55,470 nt of DNA from contig CAZYQY010000001.1 in the NCBI GenBank assembly GCA_964649795.1, positions 11,711 through 67,180 of the forward strand, written 5' to 3'. Below the pieces are notes generated by a model, which saw nothing but the letters and a program-made list of their open reading frames with translations, was not told where the DNA came from and did no database searches. Origin of the DNA: an uncultured Candidatus Saccharibacteria bacterium. Its GTDB lineage: Bacteria > Patescibacteriota > Minisyncoccia > Portnoybacterales > UBA2143. This document shows, in pieces, positions 2,323 to 52,991 of the stretch (position 1 is its first letter; the number at the start of each line of letters is the position of its first letter). Both the position numbers and the translations under genes were made by a program.

Positions 2323-3384
2323 CTAGTATATATATCCCCTAATAACTGAATCGTTAATGTGTATGGTGCGAACGCTCTTTACTCCCCATCCAAGATGATT
2401 CATTTCTGAAAAAGTGACCCAATTGCCCTTAACTGCTTCTACATAACCAACATGGCCATACCAGCTTTCTCTTGTAACAATAATAGCTCCAGCTTGTGGA
2501 GCTGTTCCAGTCTTATAACCATAAGCTCTTGAATTAGCCAGCCAGGTCTTAGCATGGCCGCTCCAAGGGACAATTCTCTTTTGAGACACATACCAAGTAC
2601 ATTGGCCATAAGGGAAACCGTGGCTAACTCCAGTGCCTGATCCAGAATAGCTTATTCTTGCTACGTATGTTGCTTTAGGAGCAACAGGCGCTGGCATTTG
2701 TCCGTCTGGAATGATTAATTTTTCACCAATTTGAATAGTCCCATTAGCCGGCAAATCATTAAAAGCGATAATTTCTTCGGTTTCTGCATCATAGTATTTG
2801 GCAATCCAGCCAATTGTTTGTCCGTCTTTAACTCTATGCAGTACTCCAGTAATTGGCAAAACAGTTAATTCATCGCCTGGCCGAATAATGCTGATTTCTT
2901 TAAGATTGTTAGCCCAAAGCAAGGTATATGTGCTAATACCGAAAGAAGCAGCAATGCTTGAAAGAGTATCGTTTTCTTGGACAGTATAAGTAATTAAACC
3001 ACTCCTTGGCTCTTGGGTAATAAAAGTAATGGGACTGGTCTGATTTAGAAAGGCATTTTCTTGCAGAGTTGCTAAAGCAGAATTGCTGTTTATCAATACA
3101 TCTTGGTTGTTATTATCTAAAGGATCTGACTGATTGGTTAAGCCAGCCAATGTATTAACCGCTAAACAGTTTTTATTAATGGCAAAATTGTTCTGTATAT
3201 TTAATTCATCAGTGGATTGCTCAACAGTAACTGATTTATCTCTGTTAAGGCAGGAGATTAGGATCGATTCCGTGCCTTTGACCGGATTAGCTAAAGACAA
3301 GCTTATACAAAATAAAACAACTGCTGCTAAGAGCAGTTTTTTGCTTTTTTCTATATCAATCTTAAATTGTTTGATCGTACTCAT
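2323..3384 (-). CDS. secreted peptidoglycan hydrolase with two LysM repeats and a C-terminal CHAP domain
   Basis: LysM-like 'YTVQENDTLSSIAASFGIS' and 'HRVKDGQTIGWIAKYY'. CHAP-like 'GQCTWYV...GHVGYVEAV'. N-terminal signal or TM segment. Confidence 0.75.
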   Translation of the reverse strand: MSTIKQFKIDIEKSKKLLLAAVVLFCISLSLANPVKGTESILISCLNRDKSVTVEQSTDELNIQNNFAINKNCLAVNTLAGLTNQSDPLDNNNQDVLINSNSALATLQENAFLNQTSPITFITQEPRSGLITYTVQENDTLSSIAASFGISTYTLLWANNLKEISIIRPGDELTVLPITGVLHRVKDGQTIGWIAKYYDAETEEIIAFNDLPANGTIQIGEKLIIPDGQMPAPVAPKATYVARISYSGSGTGVSHGFPYGQCTWYVSQKRIVPWSGHAKTWLANSRAYGYKTGTAPQAGAIIVTRESWYGHVGYVEAVKGNWVTFSEMNHLGWGVKSVRTIHINDSVIRGYIY

Positions 3385-3402
3385 GAGTACAATAATAGAG
3401 TA

Positions 3403-3687
3403 TCAAGAAGATTTCTTATTGTCAATCCCCATTTTGTGGATAGCAATAGCTAAGCGAGATTTCTTTCTACTAGCTGTGTTGTCGCTTATAACATTATGCT
3501 TAGCTGCTTTATCAATAGCTTTGTAAGTCCTGGGCAATGCCTTAATCGCGTCTTCTGTTTTTTTGTCAGCAATTAATTTTTTAATCTGCTTGACTGAAGA
3601 TTTCATTTTTTCATTTTGGTGAAGATTAAATAGCCGTTTTTTACGGCTTTGTTTTAAAGCTTTTTTAGCTGATTTGATAATAGGCAT
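3403..3687 (-). CDS. rpsT: 30S ribosomal protein S20
   Basis: 'MPIIKSAKKALKQSRKKR' and 'AIDKAAKHNVISDNTASRKKSRL' are typical of S20. Confidence 0.85.
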   Translation of the reverse strand: MPIIKSAKKALKQSRKKRLFNLHQNEKMKSSVKQIKKLIADKKTEDAIKALPRTYKAIDKAAKHNVISDNTASRKKSRLAIAIHKMGIDNKKSS

Positions 3688-3690
3688 GAA

Positions 3691-3730
3691 ATTAGTATTT
3701 AGTATTTAGTATCTAGTATTTGGTATATTA
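3691..3730. repeat. tandem heptamer (TAGTATY), about five copies, in the rpsT/ruvA divergent intergenic region
   Basis: Sequence reads 'attagtatttagtatttagtatctagtatttggtatatta'. Confidence 0.7.
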
Positions 3731-3774
3731 CCACCATATTTTATTTTTTACAAGTTTATGGTAGGATTTTAAAT

Positions 3775-4344
3775 ATGATTGCTTTATTAAAGGGAAAAAT
3801 TGAATTAAAAACAAATAAGTTTGTCATTCTTGATGTAAGAGAAGTAGGATATAAAATATTCTGTCCAATTGCTGTTTTGGAAAAAATAGGCGATAAAGGA
3901 GAAGATGCTAAATTATTTATTCATCTTTACTCAAGAGAAAATATTTTAGATTTATATGGATTTTTATCCTTTGAAGAGTTAGATTTTTTTGAAATGCTTA
4001 TTTCTATTAGCGGTATTGGGCCTAAGGCTGGTTTAGCAGTTTTATCAATTGCTTCTTTAAAAGATTTAAAAACTTCTATTGCTAGTGGCCAGGTTAGCTT
4101 GTTAACTAAGGTTTCTGGAATTGGTAAAAAAACAGCTGAAAGAGTTATTTTAGAATTAAGCAGTAAAATATTAGCTTCTGGAGATGATGTTAAGAAATTA
4201 ATGACTGATGATGAATCAATTGATGCTTTAGTGAGCTTGGGCTATACAAATCGCCAGGCCAGAGAAGCTTTAAAACAAGTTTCTGGGAAAACAAAAGGGA
4301 CAACCAATAGAATCAAAGAGGCGTTGAAGGTTTTAGGGAAATAA
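3775..4344 (+). CDS. ruvA: Holliday junction branch-migration protein RuvA
   Basis: 'MIALLKGKI', 'LYGF', HhH 'ISGIGPKAGLAVLS' and 'VSGIGKKTAERVILEL'. Confidence 0.85.
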   Translation: MIALLKGKIELKTNKFVILDVREVGYKIFCPIAVLEKIGDKGEDAKLFIHLYSRENILDLYGFLSFEELDFFEMLISISGIGPKAGLAVLSIASLKDLKTSIASGQVSLLTKVSGIGKKTAERVILELSSKILASGDDVKKLMTDDESIDALVSLGYTNRQAREALKQVSGKTKGTTNRIKEALKVLGK

Positions 4345-4349
4345 AAAAT

Positions 4350-5276
4350 ATGGATAAAAATCAATGGGATCAGTTTGTTATTAAAAACAATGGTTCCTTT
4401 TTGCAATCTTGGCAATGGGGAGAATTTCAAGAATCATTAAACCGAAAAATATGGCGAATACAGACAGATAATTTAAAAGCATTAGTAATTAAATACGATT
4501 TGCCTTTGAATAAAAATTATTTATATTGTCCAATGGGATTGGTCACAGAAGACAACATAAAGAGTTTTTTAGAAGAGATTAAGGGAATAGTCCAAGAAGA
4601 AAAGAGTGTTTTTTTTAAGATAGAGCCAGACAGATTACCAAGGTCAGACCTTTTTGAAAAAGGTCTGACCTTTAAGCAATCCCAAAAACAGATACAGCCG
4701 TCAAAAACAATAATTTTAGATATTACAAAACCAGAGCAGAAATTATTAGAACAGATGCATCAGAAAACAAGATATAATATTAAATTAGCAAAGAGAAAAG
4801 GAATAGCGATTGAAGAATCAAATAAAAAAATAGATGATTTTTTAAGATTATCAAAAGAAACTGCTAAAAGGGATAATTTTCATATTCATGACCAAGGATA
4901 TTATAAGAAAATGATAGAAGTTTTAGGAAAACAAGGAATAATCAGATTAATTTTAGCTAAATACAAAAATAAAGTTATTTCTGCTAATCTGGTTTGTTTT
5001 TTTGGGCAGACAGTTGTTTATTTACACGGCGCTTCTGATTATAATTTTCGTAATTTAATGGCTCCTTATTTATTGCAATGGCAAACAATTCTACAAGCCA
5101 AAGAGCTTGGTTTTAAACATTATGATTTTTGGGGAATTAATGAAAAAAAATGGCCTGGAGTAACCCGTTTCAAAAAAGGGTTTAATGGTCAAGAAATTAC
5201 ACATCCCGGCGCTTTCGACCTAATTTTTCAGCCATTGTGGTACAAAATTTATAACTTAGCCAGAAAGATTTCATGA
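4350..5276 (+). CDS. FemAB-family peptidoglycan interpeptide-bridge aminoacyltransferase-like protein
   Basis: 'FLQSWQWGEF' N-terminal motif, typical size and a cell-wall gene context. Confidence 0.65.
   Translation: MDKNQWDQFVIKNNGSFLQSWQWGEFQESLNRKIWRIQTDNLKALVIKYDLPLNKNYLYCPMGLVTEDNIKSFLEEIKGIVQEEKSVFFKIEPDRLPRSDLFEKGLTFKQSQKQIQPSKTIILDITKPEQKLLEQMHQKTRYNIKLAKRKGIAIEESNKKIDDFLRLSKETAKRDNFHIHDQGYYKKMIEVLGKQGIIRLILAKYKNKVISANLVCFFGQTVVYLHGASDYNFRNLMAPYLLQWQTILQAKELGFKHYDFWGINEKKWPGVTRFKKGFNGQEITHPGAFDLIFQPLWYKIYNLARKIS
4640..4672. repeat. perfect 33-nt palindrome (16-1-16) made of two AAGGTCWGACCTT units, inside the FemAB-like CDS
   Basis: 'aaggtcagaccttttt g aaaaaggtctgacctt'. It is in frame and encodes ..RSDLFEKGLTF.. 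Confidence 0.9.
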
Positions 5277-6451
5277 AAAACTTCTTAAAAAGAATAATAC
5301 CTAATTTTTTGTTGAATTGGTATCATTTTGTATGGGCTTTTTTAGGGGCAATTATTTATGGATTCCCTTCTAAAAAACTGAAAGTGATTGGCGTGACCGG
5401 GACTAATGGCAAATCCACGGTTGTTTTTTTGATTAGCCGAATTTTAGAACAAGCTGGTTATAAGGTGGCTGCTCTTTCTTCAATTCAATTTAAAATTAAA
5501 AATAAGGTCTGGCCAAATAATTTAAAAATGACTATGCCAGGCAGGTTAAAAATCCAGAAGTTTTTACAACAAGCTGTTCAATCTAAATGTCAGTATGCGG
5601 TTTTAGAAGTAACTTCAGAAGGGATTAAACAGTATCGTCATAAATTCATTGGCTTTGATTCAATAATTTTTACTAATTTAACGCCTGAACATTTAGAATC
5701 CCACGGAGGATTTGAGAATTATAAAAAAGCCAAGGGTAAGCTTTTCCAAGCGTTAAAAAATAATGGAAAGATTATTGTCAATTTAGACGATCCATCAGCT
5801 GATTATTTTATGAAATTTCCCGCCAAAAAAAAGATTGGCTATACTATAAATTCTGAAGTAAAATTCAAGTTAAATATTTTAGGCCAATTTAATATTTCTA
5901 ATGCTTTGGCCGCTATGTTTGCGGCTCAAGCAGAAGGAGTGTCTTTTAATAAAATAAAATTGGCTCTAGAAAATATAAAAAGTATTCCTGGCCGGATGGA
6001 ATTTATTATTAAAGAACCATTTACAATAATAGTTGATTATGCTCATACTCCTGATGCCTTGGAAAAGGTTTATCAAGTAGCTAAACAGATAGTGTCTGGC
6101 CGTTTAATAGGCGTTTTAGGAGCGGCTGGCGGGGGACGAGACAAATGGAAAAGACCAGAATTAGGCAAGATTGCTGCTAAATATTGTGATTATATTATTT
6201 TAACCAATGAGGATCCGTATGATGAAGATCCAAGCCGGATTTTATCTGAAATTAAAAAAGGAATTAAAAATAAAGCTCCATTTGAGATAATTTTAGACAG
6301 AAGAAAAGCAATTAAAAAAGCGATTAGCTTAGCTAATCAGGGAGATTTGGTTATTATTACTGGCAAGGGATGTGAACCGTGGATATGTGTCGCTAATAAT
6401 AAAAAGATACCTTGGGATGATAGGGAAGTGGTCAAAGAAGAATTATGCTAA
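5273..6451 (+). CDS. murE: Mur ligase, MurE-like, with a short hydrophobic N-terminus in place of the usual N-terminal domain
   Basis: P-loop 'GVTGTNGKST', 'DYAHTPDALEK', 'NEDPYDEDP' and 'DRRKAI'. 392 aa. Confidence 0.7.
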   Translation: MKNFLKRIIPNFLLNWYHFVWAFLGAIIYGFPSKKLKVIGVTGTNGKSTVVFLISRILEQAGYKVAALSSIQFKIKNKVWPNNLKMTMPGRLKIQKFLQQAVQSKCQYAVLEVTSEGIKQYRHKFIGFDSIIFTNLTPEHLESHGGFENYKKAKGKLFQALKNNGKIIVNLDDPSADYFMKFPAKKKIGYTINSEVKFKLNILGQFNISNALAAMFAAQAEGVSFNKIKLALENIKSIPGRMEFIIKEPFTIIVDYAHTPDALEKVYQVAKQIVSGRLIGVLGAAGGGRDKWKRPELGKIAAKYCDYIILTNEDPYDEDPSRILSEIKKGIKNKAPFEIILDRRKAIKKAISLANQGDLVIITGKGCEPWICVANNKKIPWDDREVVKEELC

Positions 6452-7743
6452 TTTATTTAGAAAAAATTCTTTTTTATTTTTTGATTTTCTGTTTGCCTTT
6501 TCAAACGCGGAAAATATTTTATCAATGGGGAGATAGCTTTAATGAATGGACTAGCGCTTATCTTTATTTAACTGATGTTCTGCTTATTTTAATCTTTTTT
6601 CTTTGGTTCTGGCGGATAAGAAAACAACGATTTTTTAAGAACCCATTTTCATTTCAAATGATTATAAAAAAACCCAGTTTTTGGCTGGTGTTTTTTTTAA
6701 TTATCAGTTCTATCTCACTAATTCGGGCAAATAATATTCAGCTAGGTTTTTATCATTGGTTTAAACTTCTAGAAATGACTGGCTTGTTTTTTTATTTAAA
6801 ATATAATTTTAAACAACTCCTCAATTTTAAAAAATTGGCTTATGTTTTTATTGCTAGCGGTTTATGCCAATCTATCATTGCTATTAGTCAATATATTCAG
6901 CAAAAGAGTTTGGGGTTAAAATTTTTAGCAGAAAGCCCTTTAGGAATAGAGATAGATGGCATAGCTAAAATCATTGTTAATGGGACAAAAATTGTTCGTG
7001 TATACGGAACTTTTCCTCATCCTAATGTTTTAGCTGCTTCTCTTGTCTTGAGTATTTTTTGTTTTTATTTTCTCTGGCTAAGTAAAAAACATTCCTTTTT
7101 GGGTTATTGTTCGTTGCTCATTGTTTATTGTTCATTGCTTACTGCCCTCTGGCTTACTTTTTCCAGAATTATTATCTTTACTTTTTTATTGTCCAGCTTA
7201 ATCTATTTTATTTTTATATTCTGGCAATCTCAAAAAATAAAAGACAAACAATTTTCCAAAAAAATTATCTCAATTTTTTTATTGTTCATTGTTTATTGTT
7301 CTTTGTTCATTGTTCCGGCCTGGTCGGAAATTTCTTCGCGTTTTTCTGTTTCCCTGACTGAACAATCAATTGGTCTGCGTGTTTTTTATACTCAAGCTGC
7401 CTTTTCTATTATTAAGGACTGTCCTTTATTAGGAATAGGCATAGGTAATTTTGTTTGGGAAATTAGGCAAATGATTAATTTGCTATCGTCTTGGATCCAT
7501 CAGCCAGTTCATAATGTATATTTATTAATTGCTAGCGAAACAGGACTGATAGGATTATTTTTATTTCTATTTTTTATTTTTCAATTATTGAGAAAAATCA
7601 ATCGCCAAGAAGGTTTTCTCTTATTACTTGTCTTTTCTTTTTTGTTTATTGCCTTATTTGACCATTTTTTCTGGACGCTTCAGCAAGGTCAATTGATGTT
7701 CTGGTTAGTTTTGGGTATAATGAAAGCTAGCCGCTTTTATTAA
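6445..7743 (+). CDS. polytopic membrane protein, O-antigen ligase/polymerase (Wzy_C)-like
   Basis: At least 10 predicted TM helices and a large loop in the C-terminal third. It follows murE with an overlap. Confidence 0.55.
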   Translation: MLIYLEKILFYFLIFCLPFQTRKIFYQWGDSFNEWTSAYLYLTDVLLILIFFLWFWRIRKQRFFKNPFSFQMIIKKPSFWLVFFLIISSISLIRANNIQLGFYHWFKLLEMTGLFFYLKYNFKQLLNFKKLAYVFIASGLCQSIIAISQYIQQKSLGLKFLAESPLGIEIDGIAKIIVNGTKIVRVYGTFPHPNVLAASLVLSIFCFYFLWLSKKHSFLGYCSLLIVYCSLLTALWLTFSRIIIFTFLLSSLIYFIFIFWQSQKIKDKQFSKKIISIFLLFIVYCSLFIVPAWSEISSRFSVSLTEQSIGLRVFYTQAAFSIIKDCPLLGIGIGNFVWEIRQMINLLSSWIHQPVHNVYLLIASETGLIGLFLFLFFIFQLLRKINRQEGFLLLLVFSFLFIALFDHFFWTLQQGQLMFWLVLGIMKASRFY

Positions 7744-17513: not shown

Positions 17514-17589
17514 GCGCCTGTAGCTCAGTGGACAGAGCAAAGGATTTCTAATCCTTAGGTCGGGGGTTCAAATCCCTCCAGGCGTACCA
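17514..17589 (+). tRNA. tRNA-Arg (anticodon TCT), CCA encoded
   Basis: Hand-folded cloverleaf: GCGCCTG/CAGGCGT acceptor, anticodon loop TTTCTAA, T-loop TTCAAAT. Confidence 0.85.
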
Positions 17590-17592
17590 TAT

Positions 17593-17666
17593 GGTGCCTA
17601 TAGTTTAGCGGTAAAACTCCTCTTTGTGGAAGAGGTATCGAGGGTTCAACTCCCTCTAGGCACCCA
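17593..17666 (+). tRNA. tRNA-His (anticodon GTG) with encoded G-1
   Basis: Extra 5' G opposite C73, anticodon loop TTGTGGA, T-arm GAGGG-TTCAACT-CCCTC. Confidence 0.85.
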
Positions 17667-17674
17667 AGATTAAA

Positions 17675-17700
17675 AATTCCCCGAAACATCGGGGATTTTT
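17675..17700 (+). terminator. Rho-independent terminator after the tRNA pair
   Basis: aattccccga-aaca-tcggggattttt. Confidence 0.75.
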
Positions 17701-17726
17701 GTATTTTGTAATATCTTCTGACACAT

Positions 17727-17803
17727 TTAAGAGGCTTGTCCTTCAAAATGATGCTTCTTGCGAAGCAAGGACGTCATTTTAAGGACGATGCCTCTGGATT
17801 AAA
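17727..17803. repeat. palindromic repeat element, copy 1 (left island boundary)
   Basis: 'ttaagaggcttgtccttcaaaatgatg..loop..aaggacgtcattttaaggacgatgcctctggattaa'. Both arms are the reverse complement of those at 23336-23417. Confidence 0.85.
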
Positions 17804-17938
17804 AATAAAAAAATCCATAGAAAATGCTGACAAATTATATCAGCTTATTTCTGGTAAGATTATTACTAGAAATGAATTAAGAAAAATGCTTGGTCTTAAA
17901 AAAGTCCCAAGCATTAGTCCTAAAAAAAGGGATTAGTA

Positions 17939-18127
17939 TTATCTTCCAGGATTTATACGACCTGGTTTAGGATAAACTCCGCCACTTTGATTCTTCCCTT
18001 CTCTTTCTTTATCTAGTTCATCACCTATTTCTTTAATTTGTTTAAGCGCCTCTTTTATAGCAGAATAAGGGATGTTGATAGCATTACCACCATTAAAATA
18101 TTCTTTCATTAATTCTTTAGAAGTCAT
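17939..18127 (-). CDS. small hypothetical protein (62 aa from MTSKEL)
   Basis: ORF only, with a weak RBS. No family recognised. Confidence 0.35.
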   Translation of the reverse strand: MTSKELMKEYFNGGNAINIPYSAIKEALKQIKEIGDELDKEREGKNQSGGVYPKPGRINPGR

Positions 18128-18302
18128 ATTTTTATCTTTCTTTATTATTGATATTTTACATTCGACCTTTAACAATTGACAAAATTAATATATATGATAG
18201 AGTGTTAGCCTATTTAGCAAATTGAGTTATCCCCAGTTTAGTATTAACAAAGAATGACGGGATTAACAAAAAATGCTAAGATAGAAAAAGAGAAAAAAAT
18301 TG

Positions 18303-18389
18303 CGGAGAGGGAGGGATTCGAACCCTCAAAGCATTTCAGTGCTTAATCGCTTATAAGACGAAGCCGATACCATTTCGGTTAACCTCTCC
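18303..18389 (-). tRNA. aberrant class II (long variable arm) Ser-like tRNA gene; best fold gives anticodon TAT; possibly a pseudo-tRNA
   Basis: Perfect acceptor GGAGAGG/CCTCTCC with G73. T-arm GAGGG-TTCGAAT-CCCTC. Variable arm AAGCA..TGCTT. The D-arm spacing is irregular. The anticodon stem TTCGT/GCGAT carries the loop CTTATAA. Confidence 0.55.
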
Positions 18390-18444
18390 AACATCTCAAA
18401 CAAAGACACTCTTATTTTCAACGACAGGAGTGTTTTTGTTTTAA

Positions 18445-18470
18445 AATTAAAAACCCTATTTTATTAGGGC
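18445..18470 (-). terminator. Rho-independent terminator (minus strand) downstream of the 138-aa gene
   Basis: The minus strand reads GCCCTAATAAAATAGGGTTTTT. Confidence 0.6.
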
Positions 18471-18664
18471 ATTCCTAATATATTAACATTTGTTGTTTTT
18501 GGAGTCAATGTTAATATTGTGTATAATTAACTTATGAATAAACCAACCAAAAAAAGTTTCTAAATCTCCTAAGTAAAGCTATTCAGGAAACCTATTTCTA
18601 AAGATATAGTCTAGACAGACATCATCATTAGGGAAATCTCTTTGTAAATGTTTAATAGTGTATT

Positions 18665-19081
18665 TCATTTTATTAGCTTAATAAGTGGAATGATAATATA
18701 AGTAATAATGAAACCAATTATTATTCCAGCTATAAGAAACAATATATATACAGCACTTATATTCATTTGTTCCAATGCCTTACCAAAAAAGACATAACGC
18801 TTAATAAACATTCTCCCTTTATTGGTTACTCGGATAGTCAGTTTTTTCACTTCAATATAGTTATCATCTTTACAATCAATAATAAGTTTTATCATTTTCC
18901 GTTTTCCTATATTTTCTTTAATCATAAATCTTTTCATTATTAGTTTGGCAGGTATTCCAATTTCATCCATAGTTTGTATTACACTATCAGAAAACTCTGA
19001 ATTGTTATCCAGAAACTCATCAATATATTTAACTAATCTTCTTTTTAAAAGCATTACTTTTATTTTAGCAGAAATTGACAT
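18665..19081 (-). CDS. hypothetical protein with a C-terminal TM anchor
   Basis: ORF with a hydrophobic tail 'ISAVYILFLIAGIIIGFIITYIIIPLI'. No family recognised. Confidence 0.5.
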   Translation of the reverse strand: MSISAKIKVMLLKRRLVKYIDEFLDNNSEFSDSVIQTMDEIGIPAKLIMKRFMIKENIGKRKMIKLIIDCKDDNYIEVKKLTIRVTNKGRMFIKRYVFFGKALEQMNISAVYILFLIAGIIIGFIITYIIIPLIKLIK

Positions 19082-19230
19082 ATTTTTATAGTTTTTTCAC
19101 TTGTTAATAGGGTATGATTGTGCTTTTTTAGTGTGTTGTCAAAGAAGATAAAAATAGGTATAATTAAAATAATTAAACATTTACTTTGGAATTAAAGAAT
19201 ATCTTTTTGAGGAATGTTTTAAATAATTCT

Positions 19231-19296
19231 ATGTCGAAGGCGGATACACAAACTAAAGAAGAATTAGAGAAAATTGAGCAAGAATTAATTGGATAA
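19231..19296 (+). CDS. 21-codon acidic ORF (MSKADTQTKEELEKIEQELIG) between a promoter-like site and a terminator-like hairpin; may instead be an sRNA
   Basis: TTGTCA, 17 nt spacer, TATAAT at 19136-19164. Hairpin plus T-run at 19297-19322. No good RBS. Confidence 0.2.
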   Translation: MSKADTQTKEELEKIEQELIG

Positions 19297-19367
19297 AAAC
19301 CACCTTTTAGGCGGTTTTTTGATTGACCAAAAACAGCCATAAAGGTATGATTAAAGTAAGATTTATG

Positions 19368-19427
19368 GCTCAAGAGAACTGTCCTTAATTTATGTCATTT
19401 TAAGGATAATGCCTCTGAATTAAAAAA
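19368..19427. repeat. palindromic repeat element, partial copy 2
   Basis: 'ggctcaagagaactgtccttaatttatgtcattttaaggataatgcctctgaattaa'. The right arm is in the same orientation as copy 1. Confidence 0.8.
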
Positions 19428-19572
19428 ATAAAAATATTATAAAAACATAACATGAAAGATATATTTAAAAAATATATTCAATCAATCTCCTCTAAGTTTT
19501 TTTATAATGAAACTAGTGAGATGGACGAAGGGACTAGTGATTGAGGTTGAGGAATTGATTAAATAAAAATAT

Positions 19573-19863
19573 ATGACAAGAATCAAAGATTTACCAGAAG
19601 ATCAAAGACCAAGAGAAAAATTATTAAAATTTGGGCCAGAATCTTTGTCTGATAAAGAACTTTTGGCAATTTTAATTGGTCATGGTCTCAAAGGAAAATC
19701 TGCTTTAGATATAGCAGAAGAAATGCTGCTTGAATATAAAGACCTTAAGGGATTAGCAGGTAAACGTTTGGATGAATTTATGAAAATCAAAGGAATAAAA
19801 GAAGCAAAAATTATTAAAATTGCCGTGGCGTTTGAAATCGCAAAACGAATTTATTTCACATAG
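19573..19863 (+). pseudogene. radC: radC (UPF0758) N-terminal HhH fragment lacking the JAB/MPN domain
   Basis: 'RPREKLLKFGPESLSDKELLAILIGHGLKGKSALDIAEE' matches a RadC N-terminus. The ORF stops after 96 aa, directly at the methyltransferase gene. Confidence 0.7.
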
Positions 19864-19867
19864 CAGT

Positions 19868-22330
19868 ATGTCAAAAAAAGAAAACAAGATAACCATCACT
19901 GACCCATTTCAAAACAAAAAGCATATTAATTATGCCCTTGTAGAATCTACGCGCCCAATGATGTATAAGTCTTTAAAATATTGGGGTAAAAAACCACACA
20001 ATATTTTTAAGAAGTATATAGAAAACTATACAGAAGAAAACGAAATTGTGTTAGACGCATTTGCTGGCAGTGGTATTACTCCATTAGAAGCTGTACAGAT
20101 AAAAAGAAAAGCGGTTGCGGTAGATCTTAATCCCATTTCTACTTTTATGATTGGGATGTTAGCCAAACCACTTAACTATTCAAAGTTCGGGAAATATTAT
20201 AGCGAAATTTTGGAAAAACTTGTTAAAAAAGAAAAGGATATTGGTGTCTTTATTACAAAATGCGAAAAATGTGGAAGTATTACTAGGACTACAGGAGTTC
20301 ATTGGGATGGCGACACACCGATACTTATAAGGTATGAATGTTCTTGTGTTAAGGGTATTCAAGGGAAAAGTCCCGATGATTTTGATAAGCAAATTATCAA
20401 AAAATCAGACAGTTTAAAAATTCCTTTTTGGTATCCAAGGGATGAATTTCCAAAGACAGATTTTTTCAAATCTGTTCGTAAAGGAATTGGTGATCAGTAT
20501 TACAAACTTTGGACTAATAGGACTCTCTATTTGCTTTCGTTTTTATACAAAGAGATTGAAGATATTTATGACGAAGAAGTAAAAGATTTTTTGAAATTTG
20601 CTTTTATTTCAATGATACATCTTGTTACGATTATGGTTTCTGCAAGAAGACCAAAAAGCAAAAGACCTGATTCTGGAAGCTGGGGAAGACCTGCATTTAT
20701 TTTGCCAAAAAGACATATGGAGCAGAACCCAGTGATACTTTTTCAGCGAGCGGTGGAAGATAGGCAAGGAGTTATTAAAGCAAAGAAATCTTCAGAAAAA
20801 TTACTTGCTAGCAAAGTTAAAATAGCGAAGAATTTTCAGGAATTAGCAGATAATAAAAAAGACAAAAATTTACTGATTTTAACAATTGATGCCCTGGATT
20901 TATCGAGGAGTATTCCCGAAAATAGTGTGGATTATGTATTGACCGATCCACCTTATGGCGGACTCATTCAATATTTTAGTTTAAGTAGTCTCTGGGCAGT
21001 CTGGTTAAAACATAACAATTCAAAATTTGAAATCCCATATCAAGATGAAATAACAATTGAACACAAAAAAGACTTTGAGAGATATCATAATCTACTTACC
21101 AAGGCGTTGAGGGAAATTTACAAAGTATTAAAGCCTGGGCGTTATCTGACCCTAACTTTCCATAACAGAGAAATTAATGTTTGGAATTCAGTTATCAAAG
21201 CTGGCGCATATTCTGGTTTCGTTTTCGAAAAAATTCTCTATCAGCCAAATAAGAGAGTCTCCGAAGCTGGTGTTGCTATGCCGTACGGAAGTGCAATTAG
21301 TGATTATTACTTACGATTCAAAAAACCTGAAAAGACAAGAGTATCTGAACATCAAAAAATGAACAAAGAAGAATATGAGAGAATTGTTGTTAAGGCTACT
21401 AAAGATATTATCGCATTGAGAGGTGAACCAACTGAAATGACATTTATTTTGAATGGTATTTATACTGAGTTGTTTTCAACTGGGAAATTTTTTGAAGGCA
21501 ATCATGAAGATATTGTAAATATTCTTAGAGAAAATATTGGCAAGGAATTCGTACTCATTGAAAATAAGGGTGGAAAACTTGGACCAAAATGGTGGTTGAA
21601 AAATCCAGAGGATATGCTTTTCAAACAAGTGCCTCTATCAGATCGCGTTGAAAAAGTTGTGCTGGATATGTTGCGGGGAAATATAAAAGTTACATTCGAT
21701 GAAATACTACAAAAACTATTTATCACCTTCCCAAATGGATTAACACCAGATACGAAAGGGGTAATAGAGGTATTAAAAGAATATGCGACAACTACTGGTG
21801 ATGGTAGGTGGCGTTATAAACCAGAAGTAAATTATAGAGATTCTGAACATAGCGAAATGATTCATTACCTGTCAGAAATAGGGAAAAAGGCGGGTTATAA
21901 AGTTTGGATTGGCAGTAAAGAACAGGGGGATACTTTCAAAAACGAAAAATTATCAAAATATTGCACTGAACCAAATCTTGAACTTTCCGGATTCTCAAAT
22001 GATAAACTACGGAGAATAACAATGATAGATGTTCTTTGGTATGAAGATTCCTCCATTAAATATGTTTTTGAAGTTGAAAATAGCACTAGCATTACGTCTG
22101 CAATCGAGAGGGCTTCTCATATTCCAGAAGAATACGAGGTAAAAAGATTTATTGTTATTCCAGAAGAAAGACAGAAAATGCTTGAGAGAAAAATGGGTGA
22201 ACCAATGTTTCAAGAAGGTTATAATAAATATAAATGGCAAACTATTCATTACGACGCACTAAAAGATTTTTATAATTTACATAAAAGTGATAAAACACTT
22301 AAACGAAATGATTTGATTAATTTGAAATAA
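19868..22330 (+). CDS. large DNA methyltransferase with a Cys-containing insert and a C-terminal PD-(D/E)xK-like module; candidate fused R-M enzyme
   Basis: Motif X-I 'YWGKKP..VLDAFAGSGITPLEA' at the N-terminus. 'CEKCG..CSC' insert. Motif IV 'LTDPPYGG' about 290 aa later. C-terminus reads 'MIHYLSEIGKKAGYKVWIG...IDVLWYEDSSIKYVFEVENSTS'. Start set at MSKKENK. Confidence 0.7.
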   Translation: MSKKENKITITDPFQNKKHINYALVESTRPMMYKSLKYWGKKPHNIFKKYIENYTEENEIVLDAFAGSGITPLEAVQIKRKAVAVDLNPISTFMIGMLAKPLNYSKFGKYYSEILEKLVKKEKDIGVFITKCEKCGSITRTTGVHWDGDTPILIRYECSCVKGIQGKSPDDFDKQIIKKSDSLKIPFWYPRDEFPKTDFFKSVRKGIGDQYYKLWTNRTLYLLSFLYKEIEDIYDEEVKDFLKFAFISMIHLVTIMVSARRPKSKRPDSGSWGRPAFILPKRHMEQNPVILFQRAVEDRQGVIKAKKSSEKLLASKVKIAKNFQELADNKKDKNLLILTIDALDLSRSIPENSVDYVLTDPPYGGLIQYFSLSSLWAVWLKHNNSKFEIPYQDEITIEHKKDFERYHNLLTKALREIYKVLKPGRYLTLTFHNREINVWNSVIKAGAYSGFVFEKILYQPNKRVSEAGVAMPYGSAISDYYLRFKKPEKTRVSEHQKMNKEEYERIVVKATKDIIALRGEPTEMTFILNGIYTELFSTGKFFEGNHEDIVNILRENIGKEFVLIENKGGKLGPKWWLKNPEDMLFKQVPLSDRVEKVVLDMLRGNIKVTFDEILQKLFITFPNGLTPDTKGVIEVLKEYATTTGDGRWRYKPEVNYRDSEHSEMIHYLSEIGKKAGYKVWIGSKEQGDTFKNEKLSKYCTEPNLELSGFSNDKLRRITMIDVLWYEDSSIKYVFEVENSTSITSAIERASHIPEEYEVKRFIVIPEERQKMLERKMGEPMFQEGYNKYKWQTIHYDALKDFYNLHKSDKTLKRNDLINLK

Positions 22331-22334
22331 AATT

Positions 22335-23183
22335 ATGCCAAAAAAGAAGCCTCAAAAAAAAGGAAAATACGACAAGCGTAATATCCTTAATGATTTAACG
22401 GGCAAAGAGTGGTTATTATTAACTAAGAGTATTTGGATAAGTGAGAAATGTGCTGATGATAAATTTGCGTTTCAACACCCTGCCCCTTTTTTAATCAATG
22501 ACATAAAAAAATTGGTTAGATTTTTTACCAAAGAAAATATGACAGTTCTTGATCCATTTTGTGGTTCAGGAACAACTCTTGTTGCTAGTGCTCAAGAAAA
22601 TAGAAAAGGCATTGGTATAGATTTAAGTAGAAAATATTGCCAGATGAGCCGAAAGCGTTTGCAGGATATAAAGCTTAAAAAAAATCAACAGATAATTTGT
22701 GGCGATTCCCTTAAAAAAATATCTCAAATTAAAGGCAAAATTGATTATTGTGTAACCTCGCCACCATATCATAATATTTTAAGGCATAATGGTGGTGGAC
22801 TAAGAGATACGAAAGATAAAGATGTACGTAATGGCGCGCGGTTTGGCGTTGAATATTATTCAAATAATAAACTGGATTTAGGGAATCAAGTGGAGTACAA
22901 AGATTTTTTATCTTTGTTGAAATTGGCTATGGCGGAGGTTTATAAAAAATTAAGAGAAAAAAAACATTGTTCAATTATTATTAGCGACTTTACGGTAAAT
23001 AAAAAAGAAACAAATGCGAGCGGTGATGTTATAAGACTTATGCAAGATATAGGATTTGGTTTTGATGGCTCGGTTGTACTAGTTCAAGATAATAAACCAC
23101 TCTATCCTTTTGGCTATCCTTATGCTTATAAAATGAATCATCATCATCAATATATTTTGAATTTTAGGAAGAACGAGAGTTAA
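22335..23183 (+). CDS. DNA methyltransferase with an SPPY catalytic motif (N4-cytosine or N6-adenine type)
   Basis: 'FQHPAPF..VLDPFCGSGTTLVAS' followed by 'CVTSPPYHN'. Starts 4 nt after the upstream gene. Confidence 0.75.
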   Translation: MPKKKPQKKGKYDKRNILNDLTGKEWLLLTKSIWISEKCADDKFAFQHPAPFLINDIKKLVRFFTKENMTVLDPFCGSGTTLVASAQENRKGIGIDLSRKYCQMSRKRLQDIKLKKNQQIICGDSLKKISQIKGKIDYCVTSPPYHNILRHNGGGLRDTKDKDVRNGARFGVEYYSNNKLDLGNQVEYKDFLSLLKLAMAEVYKKLREKKHCSIIISDFTVNKKETNASGDVIRLMQDIGFGFDGSVVLVQDNKPLYPFGYPYAYKMNHHHQYILNFRKNES

Positions 23184-23335
23184 AAGTAAATTTTTGGATT
23201 TTAATAAGCAAAAACAGAATACGAGGATAATTAAAGATGAGATCGATGGGTAAAAAGAAAAAGGAAAGCAGGAAAAAGGGGAAAAGGCGTCAGAAGCCGT
23301 TTTAAAAATAAATAAAAGATTTGGAAGAAGTGGGG

Positions 23336-23417
23336 TTAATCCAGAGGCGTCGTCCTTAAAATGACGTCCTTTCGCCTTTGGCTCAAGAACATCATTTTGA
23401 AGGACAAGCCTCTTTAA
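23336..23417. repeat. palindromic repeat element, copy 3 (right island boundary, inverted relative to copy 1)
   Basis: 'ttaatccagaggcgtcgtccttaaaatgacgtcct...catcattttgaaggacaagcctctttaa'. Confidence 0.85.
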
Positions 23418-23430
23418 CTTTCTCAGAAAG

Positions 23431-23455
23431 CATCATTTTGAAGAACTGTCCTTAG
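23431..23455. repeat. half copy of the palindromic repeat
   Basis: 'catcattttgaagaactgtcctta'. Confidence 0.6.
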
Positions 23456-23491
23456 AAAATATCGCTAGTAAGGCGGTTTTTTGATTAGTTA

Positions 23492-23520
23492 TTGACATAT
23501 ATATTCTTTTATGGTATATT
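23492..23520 (+). promoter_or_regulatory. sigma70-like promoter (TTGACA, 17 nt spacer, TATATT)
   Basis: Hexamers at 23492-23497 and 23515-23520. Confidence 0.5.
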
Positions 23521-23600
23521 TGTTTTAATTAGTTCTTTAAGTAAAGAAGGAAGTTTGGATAGATGACATTAACCAGAAACTTAAATAAGAGGTATTAGCT

Positions 23601-24194
23601 ATGAAAAAGAGTTTTTTTGGCTTGTTGGTGGTTTTTCTTTTCAGTTTTGGCATTTGTCAAGCTGGAGAATTTAAGGTAACTCCACCGTGGAATGAAAGAG
23701 ACGATTCTGATAGTTCTTGGATTCCAAAAGAGGCGAAAATTCTAACCGAATCTGAAGCATCTTTATTGAGATTTTCGGTAATTCAAATAAAGGGAGATTT
23801 AGTAGAATTTTCTATTCCCGCTTTTCCTATTTTTACCAGGAAACCAGCAGAAAATTTTGTCTGGCACGTTTCGGAAGCAAGCTATATGAAATTTTTATCA
23901 ACTCCGAAATATTCAAAAGAAGGGTGGGCGCCACCACGAGATTTAAAAGTTGATGTTTATAATAATGGCAAGGCAGAAGGTGGATATGTGCAAGGAGGAT
24001 TTAATCTGCCTGAACATGGTATATATTGGGTACGAATAGGCGTGCCATGTGATGGACCATGCTCTATTATTAGCGAGGTAGATTCTTTTGTGAGGGGTAG
24101 AGGCAATAGAAATTATCTTGGATACGAATTTGTCGTAAATGCAGACAATATGAAATGGCAACACATTCCGTTATCATATCCTAAATTTCCATAA
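23601..24194 (+). CDS. secreted hypothetical protein
   Basis: Signal peptide 'MKKSFFGLLVVFLFSFGICQA', RBS 'aagagg', and its own promoter and terminator. Confidence 0.6.
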   Translation: MKKSFFGLLVVFLFSFGICQAGEFKVTPPWNERDDSDSSWIPKEAKILTESEASLLRFSVIQIKGDLVEFSIPAFPIFTRKPAENFVWHVSEASYMKFLSTPKYSKEGWAPPRDLKVDVYNNGKAEGGYVQGGFNLPEHGIYWVRIGVPCDGPCSIISEVDSFVRGRGNRNYLGYEFVVNADNMKWQHIPLSYPKFP

Positions 24195-24210
24195 AAAGGG
24201 AGCAAACTGA

Positions 24211-24239
24211 AGGGCTTGACTTGCATCAAGCCCTTTTTT
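24211..24239 (+). terminator. Rho-independent terminator
   Basis: agggcttga-cttgca-tcaagccct followed by a T-run. Confidence 0.8.
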
Positions 24240-24257
24240 AATATATAATACAAATCT

Positions 24258-25112
24258 ATGCAAGAATTTTTCCAAAACTTTATAACGAATTTGACTCCTT
24301 GGGTTTTTGTTCATGGGATGAAAATTATTGTTATTCTTGTCGGCGCTTATATTATTCGCTATTTTGCAGGAGCAATAATTGATAAAATTATCAGAAAAGC
24401 AATTGTTTCTAAAGGATTTTTAACTCCTGAAGCAGAAAAGAAAAGAGAAGATACTTTAATAAGCATTTTTGAAGGCACTGTAAAAGTTATTGTCTGGGCA
24501 GCAGCAATTCTGATGATTATTGCAGAATTAGGAGTCAATATTGGGCCTTTGCTTGCTGGAGCAGGAATATTTGGTTTGGCAATCGGTTTTGGCGCTCAAT
24601 ATATTATCCGTGATTTTTTTACTGGCCTTTTTATTATCTTAGAGAATCAATATAGAGTAGGCGATGTAGTCAAAATTGGAGATATAGCAGGAACAGTAGA
24701 AAGTATCAATTTAAGAATGACTGTTTTAAGAGATGTTGATGGAACAGTCCATCATGTTCCTAATGGGGAAATAAAGATTGCCTCTAATTTATCTAAAGAA
24801 TTTGCTAGGGTTAATATGAAGATAGGCATTGCTTATAATACTGACATAGAAGAAGCAATTAAAGTAGTTAATCAAGTTGGGAAAGAAATGTCTAAAGATT
24901 CAGAATGGAAAGACAAAATTATTAAAGCGCCTGAATTTGTCCGAGTTGATGATCTTGCTGATTCAGCTATGGTTATTAAGATATCAGGAGAGGTTAAACC
25001 ATTAGAACAATGGTCAGTGCTTGGCGAATTAAAGAAAAGAATAAAGGTTGCTTTTGACAAACAAGGCATTGAAATCCCATTCCCTCAAATAGTTGTCCAT
25101 CAGGGGAAATAA
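24258..25112 (+). CDS. mscS: small-conductance mechanosensitive channel (MscS family)
   Basis: 'GAQYIIRDFFTGLFIILENQYRVGDVVKIGDIAGTVESINLRMTVLRD..DGTVHHVPNGEI'. Confidence 0.85.
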   Translation: MQEFFQNFITNLTPWVFVHGMKIIVILVGAYIIRYFAGAIIDKIIRKAIVSKGFLTPEAEKKREDTLISIFEGTVKVIVWAAAILMIIAELGVNIGPLLAGAGIFGLAIGFGAQYIIRDFFTGLFIILENQYRVGDVVKIGDIAGTVESINLRMTVLRDVDGTVHHVPNGEIKIASNLSKEFARVNMKIGIAYNTDIEEAIKVVNQVGKEMSKDSEWKDKIIKAPEFVRVDDLADSAMVIKISGEVKPLEQWSVLGELKKRIKVAFDKQGIEIPFPQIVVHQGK

Positions 25113-25171: not shown

Positions 25172-25657
25172 ATGCCGACTATTCATCAATTAGTTAAAAG
25201 ACCAAGAAAAATTTCAAAGAAGAAACCAAAAACGCCAGCTCTTGGCAAGAGTTTTAATTTGCTTAAAAACAAACCAAGCAAAACACACTCGCCTTTTAAG
25301 CGCGGCGTTTGCCTGAAAGTCCATACAGTTACTCCTAAAAAACCAAATTCAGCTTTGCGCAAAGTTGCCAGAGTCAGACTTACTAATGGTATGGAAGTAA
25401 CTGCCTATATTCCTGGAGAAGGGCACAATTTGCAAGAGCATTCAGTTATTTTAATTCGAGGCGGACGGGTTAAAGATTTGCCTGGAGTTCGTTATCATGT
25501 AGTAAGGGGAGTTTTAGATACAGAAGGAGTAGAAGGCAGGAAACAAAAAAGGAGCCGTTACGGAACTAAAAAACAAGGAGCTACAAAAAAAGCAGAAACA
25601 AGTAAAGAAGCAGCGGACATAGCTGAACCAGAAACCGAAAATAAAGAACAGTCCTAA
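25172..25657 (+). CDS. rpsL: 30S ribosomal protein S12, with a C-terminal extension
   Basis: 'MPTIHQLV', '[15 protein letters not shown]' and '[13 protein letters not shown]'. Confidence 0.95.
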
Positions 25658-25705
25658 AAATGACGCCCTTGTGCTCAAGGGACATCATTTTAAGAACTGT
25701 CCTTT
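25651..25705. repeat. palindromic repeat element, copy 4, in the rpsL-rpsG spacer
   Basis: 'gtcctaaaaatgacgcccttgtgctcaagggacatcattttaagaactgtcc'. It overlaps the rpsL stop codon. Confidence 0.8.
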
Positions 25706-25711
25706 AAATCT

Positions 25712-52714: not shown

Positions 52715-52991
52715 TTGCGGGGGCCGGACTCGAACCGGCGACCTCGAGGTTCTTGCATATTAACCATTTATTTCTAAATGGAATGGACTATCCCATCTTC
52801 CCATTGCTAATAGTGGGAAGTTCCCATTATAGTCTCTGAACCTTGTCGTCTAAGACGACCTTGGCTGCTGATTACCGAGAAATAAATCTGACGGCTTCCC
52901 AGCAATTTAGAGAATTTTTCCACAGAATGTTGCCATCCTGGGCCACAATTTTACTTATGGGCCTCGCGAGCTGCCACTGCTCCACCCCGCA
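52715..52991 (-). tRNA. initiator-type tRNA(CAT) gene interrupted by a 205-nt intron after anticodon position 36
   Basis: Exon 1 (52957-52991) is TGCGGGGTGGAGCAGTGGCAGCTCGCGAGGCCCAT. Exon 2 (52715-52751) is AACCTCGAGGTCGCCGGTTCGAGTCCGGCCCCCGCAA. Joined, they form a cloverleaf with an A11:U24 pair and an fMet-like acceptor and T-arm. Confidence 0.8.
52752..52956 (-). other. group I intron (IC3-like, no ORF)
   Basis: The 5' splice site follows a U that can wobble-pair with the intron GUGG. The intron ends in G. The core reads 'CCAAGG-hairpin-AAGGTTCAGAGACTATAATGGG'. It is 205 nt long. Confidence 0.7.

Follow-up and report, generated by a model that had tools for sequence, protein, structure and literature searches.

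How does accessory DNA come to be lodged among housekeeping genes when no integrase accompanies it? The question is raised by a 55,470-nt stretch from an uncultured Candidatus Saccharibacteria bacterium (the window, to whose full length all coordinates refer), in which two tRNA genes and mscS enclose some 6.6 kb of variable DNA with ~80-nt repeats at the junctions of its parts. The answer we favour, and hold to be probable rather than secure, is that 17666-24257 is a mosaic island occupying a hotspot, and that the repeats are dispersed, non-autonomous palindromic elements located at module junctions – elements of the kind represented by miniature inverted-repeat transposable elements (MITEs), repetitive extragenic palindromic (REP) sequences and Rickettsia palindromic elements (RPEs). 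L-numbers denote homologous loci or contigs from metagenome-assembled genomes (MAGs) and metagenomes.

A hotspot of gene transfer between tRNA-His and mscS

The conserved left anchor of the locus is formed by tRNA-Arg(tct) (17514-17589) and tRNA-His(gtg) (17594-17665), both on the plus strand and both recognized by ARAGORN and Rfam; the conserved right anchor is mscS (24258-25112, plus strand), followed by rpsL, rpsG and fusA. The tRNA pair is also found after pilMNO-p91 in L003, L004, L021, L058 and L064. Relatives were reached by tblastn of the flanking proteins against repeat-bearing loci and then by way of the contigs carrying mscS homologues. In the closest relative found (L058/L059, mscS 88% identical) only 16 nt separate tRNA-His from the mscS ATG, and the covariance model described below finds no hairpin at the site. 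Because the empty site of L058 holds 16 nt at this position, the accessory stretch, which as a whole has no strand, was set at 17666-24257. In L021/L024 the order is pilM-pilN-pilO-p91, tRNA-Arg, tRNA-His, a terminator, two small hairpins, mscS and rpsL: the ~230 nt from tRNA-His to mscS are a near-empty site holding only hairpins. Other relatives are filled differently: L060 (mscS 84%) has genes of 322 and 162 aa together with two hairpins, L062 (82%) an SDH-protease and other genes, and L064/L065 (79%) 14 small genes over ~8 kb (among them Lycopene_cyc, Gmad2, GNAT, NUDIX and NADAR) in which the covariance model finds no hairpin. Since L021, L058, L060, L062 and L064 hold different cargo, or none, between the same core flanks, the tRNA-His-mscS locus is a hypervariable hotspot of horizontal gene transfer, found in a clade of Parcubacteria-like Patescibacteria.

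These comparisons support an initial annotation of the window, made from the sequence by itself, in proposing that accessory DNA had been inserted downstream of tRNA-Arg and tRNA-His: an empty site exists, and gene order varies among relatives instead of being the same in all. The segment it had delimited (17727-23486) is indeed an accessory island, but the boundaries were drawn too narrowly, because the variable stretch also takes in p197 (23601-24194, plus strand). This orphan protein, encoded beyond the right-hand repeat, has no Pfam match, and a homologue was found only in same-strain contigs, by tblastn on repeat-bearing loci and in the gene lists of relatives. A Pfam scan of the window proteins detected neither integrase nor transposase inside the island, again as the annotation had stated. 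The position directly 3' of tRNA genes, the variable presence and the defence cargo recall islands inserted at tRNA genes by integrases, and L060 does have a serine recombinase element; the island differs in having neither an integrase nor an att repeat copied from the tRNA 3' end (the 3'-terminal 24 nt of tRNA-His are found once in the window, and there is no att-like direct repeat). The island itself is an ordinary hotspot island without integrase.

Two further observations concern the anchors. The L060 element (3317-7719) consists of a large serine recombinase, a helix-turn-helix protein and a 542-aa protein; it lies between tRNA-Arg and tRNA-His and overlaps the 3' end of the former. A same-strain mscS variant in one sample (L015) has an in-frame deletion of ~123 nt (equivalent of 24625-24743), giving 243 vs 284 aa.

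The cargo includes a three-gene module (19560-23183, plus strand), identified from Pfam, PADLOC and nucleotide homology. By Pfam its genes encode a 96-aa UPF0758_N ("RadC N-terminal") protein (19573-19863), an N6_N4_Mtase-NmeDI_C fusion of 820/832 aa (19868-22330, alternative starts at 19820/19832) and a second N6_N4_Mtase of about 280-282 aa (22335-23183), all on the plus strand. PADLOC calls the module MTase_II and, with a methyltransferase and an endonuclease domain, the cargo is a predicted Type II restriction-modification system. The two DNA methyltransferases of the initial annotation are thus both N6_N4_Mtase proteins, the first being fused to an NmeDI_C endonuclease domain that had been missed. 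The unit is mobile: DNA homology over 19560-23173, covering exactly the three genes, links it at 75-82% nucleotide identity to L066-L073, which represent three unrelated chromosomal settings (EF-P/MazG, ABC transporter/SBP_bac_5 and LexA/HNH). The covariance model finds no hairpin around the unit in any of L066-L073. The ~30-nt inverted repeats that had been seen flanking the module are present but, since the unit is hairpin-free in three other contexts, they are not its ends, and we rejected them as such; these comparisons show that the unit is self-contained and moves independently. In all four contexts seen, the UPF0758_N gene is strictly linked to the MTase-NmeDI_C gene. Because it always accompanies the module in those contexts, what had been described as a truncated radC is a regular and intact gene of the unit, which suggests that its product may have an accessory or regulatory role in restriction-modification, so far unrecognized.

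A dispersed family of hairpin elements

Two full copies of the repeat, 77-83 nt long, are present in the island. Copy 1 (A-type, 17727-17804, plus strand; 96.7 bits with covariance model R1) has the apical loop CTTCTTGCGAAGCAAGGA, and copy 2 (A-type, 23334-23416, minus strand; 83.0 bits) has a longer apical stem-loop, the two loops being different and from different subfamilies. A repeat search pairs their arms in inverted orientation over 36 nt (17767-17802/23336-23371, 97% complementary) and 28 nt (17726-17753/23390-23417, 96%), which bears out the two inverted ~80-nt copies recognized previously. The partial third copy, reported as matching the right boundary in inverted orientation at 26 of 30 positions, is equally real: 19394-19423 aligns with 23336-23365 over 30 nt (87%, 26/30). 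It belongs to copy 3 (19370-19425, plus strand; 27.9 bits), in which a B-type and an A-type right arm are combined in decayed form and which matches the 3' part of a nested hairpin in L003 (86% identity to L003 6459-6516). The 30-nt right arm, with three mismatches or fewer, occurs three times in the window vs 0.00 expected.

Three features had escaped the initial annotation. Each full copy is itself a ~30-bp imperfect hairpin (copies 1 and 2 fold at -38.7 and -45.2 kcal/mol, z = -8.0 and -7.3); the repeat search of the window reveals a B-type left-arm half-copy (23420-23446, minus strand); and a diverged B-type fourth copy (25634-25708, minus strand; 51.9 bits, E = 2.9e-12) fills the rpsL-rpsG spacer. 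The fourth copy has different outer arms but the same inner arms as the family, and it overlaps the end of rpsL, to which it contributes the stop codon; accordingly, the C-terminus of RpsL is not the same in relatives that have the element and in those that lack it. Between rpsL and rpsG an element is present in the window, L060, L062 and L064, whereas L058 and L021 have none there.

Within the island hairpins stand at all three junctions: between core and orphan segment, between orphan segment and restriction-modification unit, and between that unit and p197. The four copies lie within 8 kb of the 55-kb window, in or next to the hotspot, and neither the covariance model nor a pattern search detects any at operon ends elsewhere in the window. 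With only one diverged copy in the other ~49 kb of the window, the hairpin is not a generic operon-end terminator, the interpretation that the initial annotation had set against its own.

Beyond the window the family is widely dispersed. An exact-pattern scan that used the right arm only found 8 loci in 6 Patescibacteria MAGs (GTDB), with 1-2 exact copies per MAG, and 37 metagenome loci; flanks differ between loci. Two of the latter (L030 and L042) are chance matches with no hairpin present, and 35 are genuine. About 40 other loci from many Patescibacteria carry the hairpin, in 22 distinct sequences, and the left arm is almost invariant across copies even though it lay outside the search pattern. 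Covariance model R1, built from the 22 distinct copies, recovered further diverged members. Dispersal is accompanied by insertion polymorphism: flanks vary across the ~40 loci, relatives either have or lack a copy at the rpsL-rpsG site, and a copy is found within a comF-like open reading frame (ORF). The hairpin at the tRNA-His-mscS site of L021 has the same apical loop as copy 1. A weak hairpin match was also noted at the rplC/rplD junction of L060 (16829-17378), where rplD is called at only 110 aa.

The element measures 75-97 nt and is an imperfect palindrome over its entire length – short, non-coding and with terminal inverted repeats, as MITEs are. Its arms (25-36 nt) are nearly invariant, while the apical stem-loop varies in sequence and length yet keeps its pairing; loop-length variants have cores of 66, 67, 69, 70 and 72 nt. 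Because these lengths differ by non-multiples of three, the hairpin contains no conserved ORF; a candidate peptide, the ATGATG...TAA frame of some copies, was discarded, being broken by the loop-length differences. In a model-fitted alignment of 41 members – one that leans towards the modelled structure, and in which a DNA palindrome would give the same covariation signal as an RNA – 97.8% of cells are paired and 11 of 27 pairs are changed on both sides; slid controls pair at 27-64% only. One strand is the more stable in 38 of the 41 members (means -42.2 vs -35.0 kcal/mol), a consistent difference that arises from G·U pairs and bulges. Relative to flanking genes the two orientations are about equally common.

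Most hairpins elsewhere are solitary. Some are nested, with one hairpin lodged in another's apical loop (L003, L007, L032, L040, L041 and 23334-23446 of the window). Two tandem hairpins lie in-frame within the comF-like phosphoribosyltransferase (PRTase) ORF of L006 (2238-2358), adding ~39 residues before the PRTase motif; the insertion is identical in four further contigs (L009, L014, L026 and L038), and one of the two hairpins belongs to a sister family (AGAGGTCGGACC.../AGGCCGTGCC...). Sister families, for example GGAATAGGCACGGCC...GCCTATTCC and AGAGGTCCGACCT...AGGTCCGACCTCT, are often found directly beside the main hairpin (L021 2785-2840, L001 190-215, L008 971-1045, L012, L017 and L020), in a clustering reminiscent of bacterial interspersed mosaic elements (BIME-like). 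Array-like arrangements occur in two loci, with hairpins in the same orientation: L010 reads tRNA-Gly, hairpin, gene, hairpin, and L012 gene, hairpin, gene, hairpin, gene. The hairpin-flanked gene of L010 is a Lycopene_cyc gene that is hairpin-free in L064. The long gene array of L013 has one hairpin for six genes, and in the islands of L013, L028, L043 and L064 no pattern of a hairpin between every gene was found.

Most neighbours of the hairpins are accessory genes: Dam-type, N6_N4 and type III DNA methyltransferases, DUF3800, reverse transcriptase, Fic and SDH protease. Among the families matched by at least two of 113 hairpin-neighbour proteins there is no recurrent transposase or recombinase, and neither these families nor the island include a candidate for a parent insertion sequence that would encode the transposase. 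No consistent target-site duplication or constant flanking tetranucleotide was seen around the 22 distinct copies. Rfam 15 has no family at the hairpins, either at gathering threshold or at E <= 1. The right arm has no match in IMG/VR viral contigs, GenBank phages or PLSDB plasmids, and so there is no sign in these collections of a phage or plasmid origin. Searches of the literature on palindromic repeats, MITEs, attC sites and hotspots of Patescibacteria or Parcubacteria brought up no account of such an element, and the ~80-nt family is apparently undescribed.

Many copies lie near contig ends. In the strain studied here copy 1 contains the ends of four contigs and copy 2 the starts of two; such breaks are expected at any palindrome longer than the assembler k-mer. 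The same-strain contigs (L015 and L046-L057) are all colinear and nearly all 100% identical. They show no inversion or population heterogeneity, including at the junctions, where the initial annotation had thought it worth looking for.

Orphan segment and shared spacer modules

The left orphan segment (17939-19296, mixed strands), without Pfam or PADLOC matches, holds the orphan genes p78 (17939-18175, minus strand), p138 (18665-19081, minus strand) and p36 (19186-19296, plus strand); around p36 (19221-19300) identity to L002 and L037 is 89-91%. The segment also contains an odd 88-nt tRNA (18302-18389, minus strand) that has anticodon UAU, a D stem of 3 bp and, in the shape of class II, a long variable arm. 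The tRNA scores 33.6 bits with the Rfam tRNA model and 39.7 bits with tRNA-Sec, for which the cut-off is higher (47). Over its 3'-terminal 28 nt it matches a tRNA-Ser gene of L006 exactly, and it may be a Ser-like tRNA reading AUA. A second unusual tRNA locus, outside the island, is a group I intron (52764-52966, minus strand; Rfam RF00028, 75.4 bits) beside tRNA-Asp and tRNA-Met: when it is removed in silico ARAGORN recognizes a tRNA, and the intron most likely interrupts a tRNA gene, the identity of which depends on the exact splice points.

The island's spacers are pieced together from short modules, which appear again in the accessory regions of other Patescibacteria but not in the housekeeping parts of the window or of its relatives. 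Downstream of p36 a terminator-like motif (aggcggttttttgatt) is followed by a promoter-like TTGACC-17-TATGAT (19296-19360, plus strand), and this terminator-plus-promoter module contains the aggcggttttttg motif to which the initial annotation had drawn attention. The recurrence noted there holds: AGGCGGTTTTTTGATT occurs exactly twice in the window, at 19309-19324 and 23471-23486, vs 0.13 expected, the latter within a second terminator-like motif (23461-23486, plus strand). The promoter module (19332-19353) recurs upstream of hairpins in L012, L020, L043 and L060.

To the right of the restriction-modification unit lie a tiny basic ORF (23238-23306, plus strand), probably a remnant, and a Shine-Dalgarno/leader module, AATAAATAAAAGATTTGGAAG (23307-23327, plus strand), found elsewhere before unrelated genes: as AATAAATAAAAGATTTGGAGG it is present 6 times in L013, 3 times in L028, and in other loci. 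Thus in L013/L034 (614-5133), L028, L037 and L043 unrelated small genes are each preceded by the ~21-nt stop-plus-Shine-Dalgarno module AATAAATAAAAGATTTGGAGG. Confined to accessory regions, it looks like a standardized intercistronic linker common to several genomes. The whole ~190-nt junction block (23300-23483), comprising this module, copy 2, the half-copy and the terminator, is 84-85% identical to L028 and L001.

Known elements and alternative explanations

What kind of element is the hairpin? REP sequences, and the REP doublets that form hairpins (REPINs), number tens to hundreds of copies per genome. Both they and the elements described here are short, non-coding, imperfect palindromes that form a long hairpin; both lie largely outside genes, in either orientation, and may be clustered, nested or in tandem. 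REP and REPIN elements are mobilized by RAYT transposases (Bertels & Rainey, PMC3116915; PMC3337134). In contrast, no RAYT (Y1 transposase) gene was seen near any hairpin copy here, copies appear to be few (4 in 55 kb around one hotspot, 1-2 exact per MAG), and the hairpin has no GTAG-type 5' signature. REPIN-RAYT systems are, moreover, described as mostly vertically inherited (bioRxiv 10.1101/2022.05.22.493013), whereas the hairpin is near-identical in deeply divergent hosts.

Other comparisons are similarly partial. Copies of the hairpin recall RPEs in the in-frame insertion in the comF-like ORF of L006 and in the rpsL 3' end, where the element provides the stop codon. RPEs are palindromic repeats of a reduced genome, able to insert in-frame into protein-coding genes; no transposase is known for them or for the hairpins. 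They differ in unrelated sequence and in a host of another phylum, and the copies described here are mostly intergenic and clustered in accessory DNA (Rickettsia palindromic elements are mentioned in PMC1779305 and PMC1458961). The hairpins also invite comparison with repeats of Neisseria: cassettes lie between conserved flanks, and spacers are composed of shared short modules. The neisserial Correia, dRS3 and NIME (Neisseria intergenic mosaic element) repeats and the "minimal mobile elements" are, respectively, small repeats at the junctions of variable cassettes and units of integrase-free exchange in bacteria that take up DNA. Correia elements have a TA target duplication and hundreds of copies, neither of which is seen here.

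On the interpretation that we favour, the island was built from at least three independently acquired pieces – the orphan segment with its odd tRNA, the restriction-modification piece (a horizontally mobile three-gene unit of predicted Type II) and p197. The hairpins are neither att sites nor terminal repeats of the island; rather, together with the shared promoter, terminator and Shine-Dalgarno modules, they occupy the junctions of acquired modules. Their spread could be effected in trans by some enzyme, or by recombination between copies, and would favour intergenic DNA and the loops of hairpins already present. Resident copies may in turn offer portable homology or secondary structure where cassettes swap. 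Hairpins would accumulate at module junctions or help to create them. The cargo of this strain most likely entered by homologous recombination through the conserved flanks, not by means of an integrase. That hosts with no more than 56-75% identity in PilM have near-identical hairpin arms points to recent horizontal spread or to recognition by a protein, and argues against both neutral vertical descent and selection on structure alone.

Several observations count against this interpretation. The hairpins have no target-site duplication and no constant flanking tetranucleotide, and no transposase or recombinase family recurs among those listed for the 113 neighbours. With 1-2 exact copies per MAG the family is unlike classical REPs and MITEs in its apparently low copy number. 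No clean pair of filled and empty sites with exact breakpoints was found; the rpsL-rpsG spacer of L058 has ~19 nt in place of ~57 nt. The occupation of all three window junctions, and the single genes flanked by directly oriented hairpins in L010 and L012, fit active cassette capture too. Finally, the conservation of bulges and G·T positions, and the greater stability of the same strand in 38/41 copies, could be due to recognition of the element as one folded strand instead of to common descent only.

Such observations lead to the most serious alternative, which we nevertheless regard as unlikely: that the hairpins are site-specific recombination sites resembling attC (the cassette site of integrons) or dif, that an unlinked recombinase captures and exchanges cassettes at them, acting on the folded or the duplex form, and that the island is a small array formed at a resident hairpin beside tRNA-His. 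A single hairpin with the loop of copy 1 at the otherwise empty site of L021 would be such a resident site, and hairpins at the three module junctions and the same-oriented hairpins that separate single genes in L010 and L012 are as expected. In build, too, the element resembles attC sites and clusters of attC sites lacking integron-integrases (CALINs): it is a hairpin comparable in size, its basal stems conserved, with bulged bases and a variable terminal structure, sometimes in gene-hairpin-gene arrays, and has one strand that is consistently the more stable. However, its consensus ends, (A)AGAGGC ... GCCTCTGRWTWA, do not match the RYYYAAC ... GTTRRRY core sites, and for lack of these identity with attC was rejected. 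Sequence is conserved as well as structure, orientation is mixed (the window pair is inverted, not direct), and copies occur within an ORF and in the rpsL-rpsG spacer of a core operon. Nor do cassettes depend on the hairpin: L058 and the 8-kb island of L064 are without it, the restriction-modification unit and the Lycopene_cyc gene are hairpin-free elsewhere, and the L013 array has its one hairpin for six genes. An integron-like array, with one site per cassette in one orientation beside intI, was not found, only L010 and L012 being array-like; no IntI was found, no recombinase recurs among the neighbours, and among the families listed for the 113 neighbour proteins there is no recurrent tyrosine recombinase.

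A related but more speculative idea, to which we give rather less weight still, is that the hairpin and the Shine-Dalgarno/leader, promoter and terminator modules constitute the standardized junction syntax of a Patescibacteria-specific system of cassette exchange, integron-like yet unrelated to attC and IntI, in which the hairpin of the folded strand, invariant in the sequence of its arms, would be the recombination site for some enzyme. If true, this would explain how defence islands without integrases are assembled in the tiny genomes of Patescibacteria.

Two other explanations fit the data less well. The hairpins are improbable as RNA elements – stabilizers of transcript ends, processing sites, insulators or terminators – conserved by selection on RNA structure. 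Their very stable folds (z about -8), their covarying pairs, the G·U pairs that make one strand 7 kcal/mol more stable on average, the intergenic position (the rpsL-rpsG spacer included) and the promoter module directly upstream of some copies are all consistent with such a role. Against it, orientation to flanking genes is ~50:50, the mRNA of the rpsL operon would carry the weaker strand, neither strand is followed by a U-tract, and no Rfam family is found even at E <= 1; the closest relative lacks the element at both sites, and arms invariant in sequence across hosts with PilM at 56-75% are not predicted by selection on structure only.

Least tenable, and in our view very improbable, is the model of the initial annotation, in which 17727-23417 is one non-autonomous, MITE-like composite element that moved as a unit into the tRNA-His site with the inverted hairpins as its terminal inverted repeats: the flanking copies are near-identical and inverted, with left arms outward on both sides, no integrase lies between them, and contigs break at both, but such breaks are expected at palindromes longer than the assembler k-mer, there is no target-site duplication (none at 17727 or 23417, where a search for one had been suggested), p197 beyond the right repeat is equally accessory, the two apical loops come from different subfamilies, the interior is a mosaic whose restriction-modification unit is found in three other, hairpin-free contexts, hairpins are solitary in most loci and in L021 present without an island, and the contigs that span the region, which come from five samples, are without exception colinear and 100% identical. 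It is to the ~80-nt hairpin, and not to the 5.7-kb segment, that the term MITE-like applies.

How defence genes are acquired is poorly understood in Patescibacteria, whose genomes are very small, with few recognizable mobile elements, and for which there are no genetic tools. At this locus the hotspot (tRNA-His|mscS) is cleanly defined, an empty site and no fewer than five alternative fillings being available for comparison, and a portable three-gene restriction-modification unit is seen in four contexts. The hairpin family – apparently undescribed, though elements of its kind are known – can serve as a marker of variable regions and of assembly breaks in Patescibacteria MAGs, and a concrete substrate for testing for a hairpin-specific recombinase or transposase.

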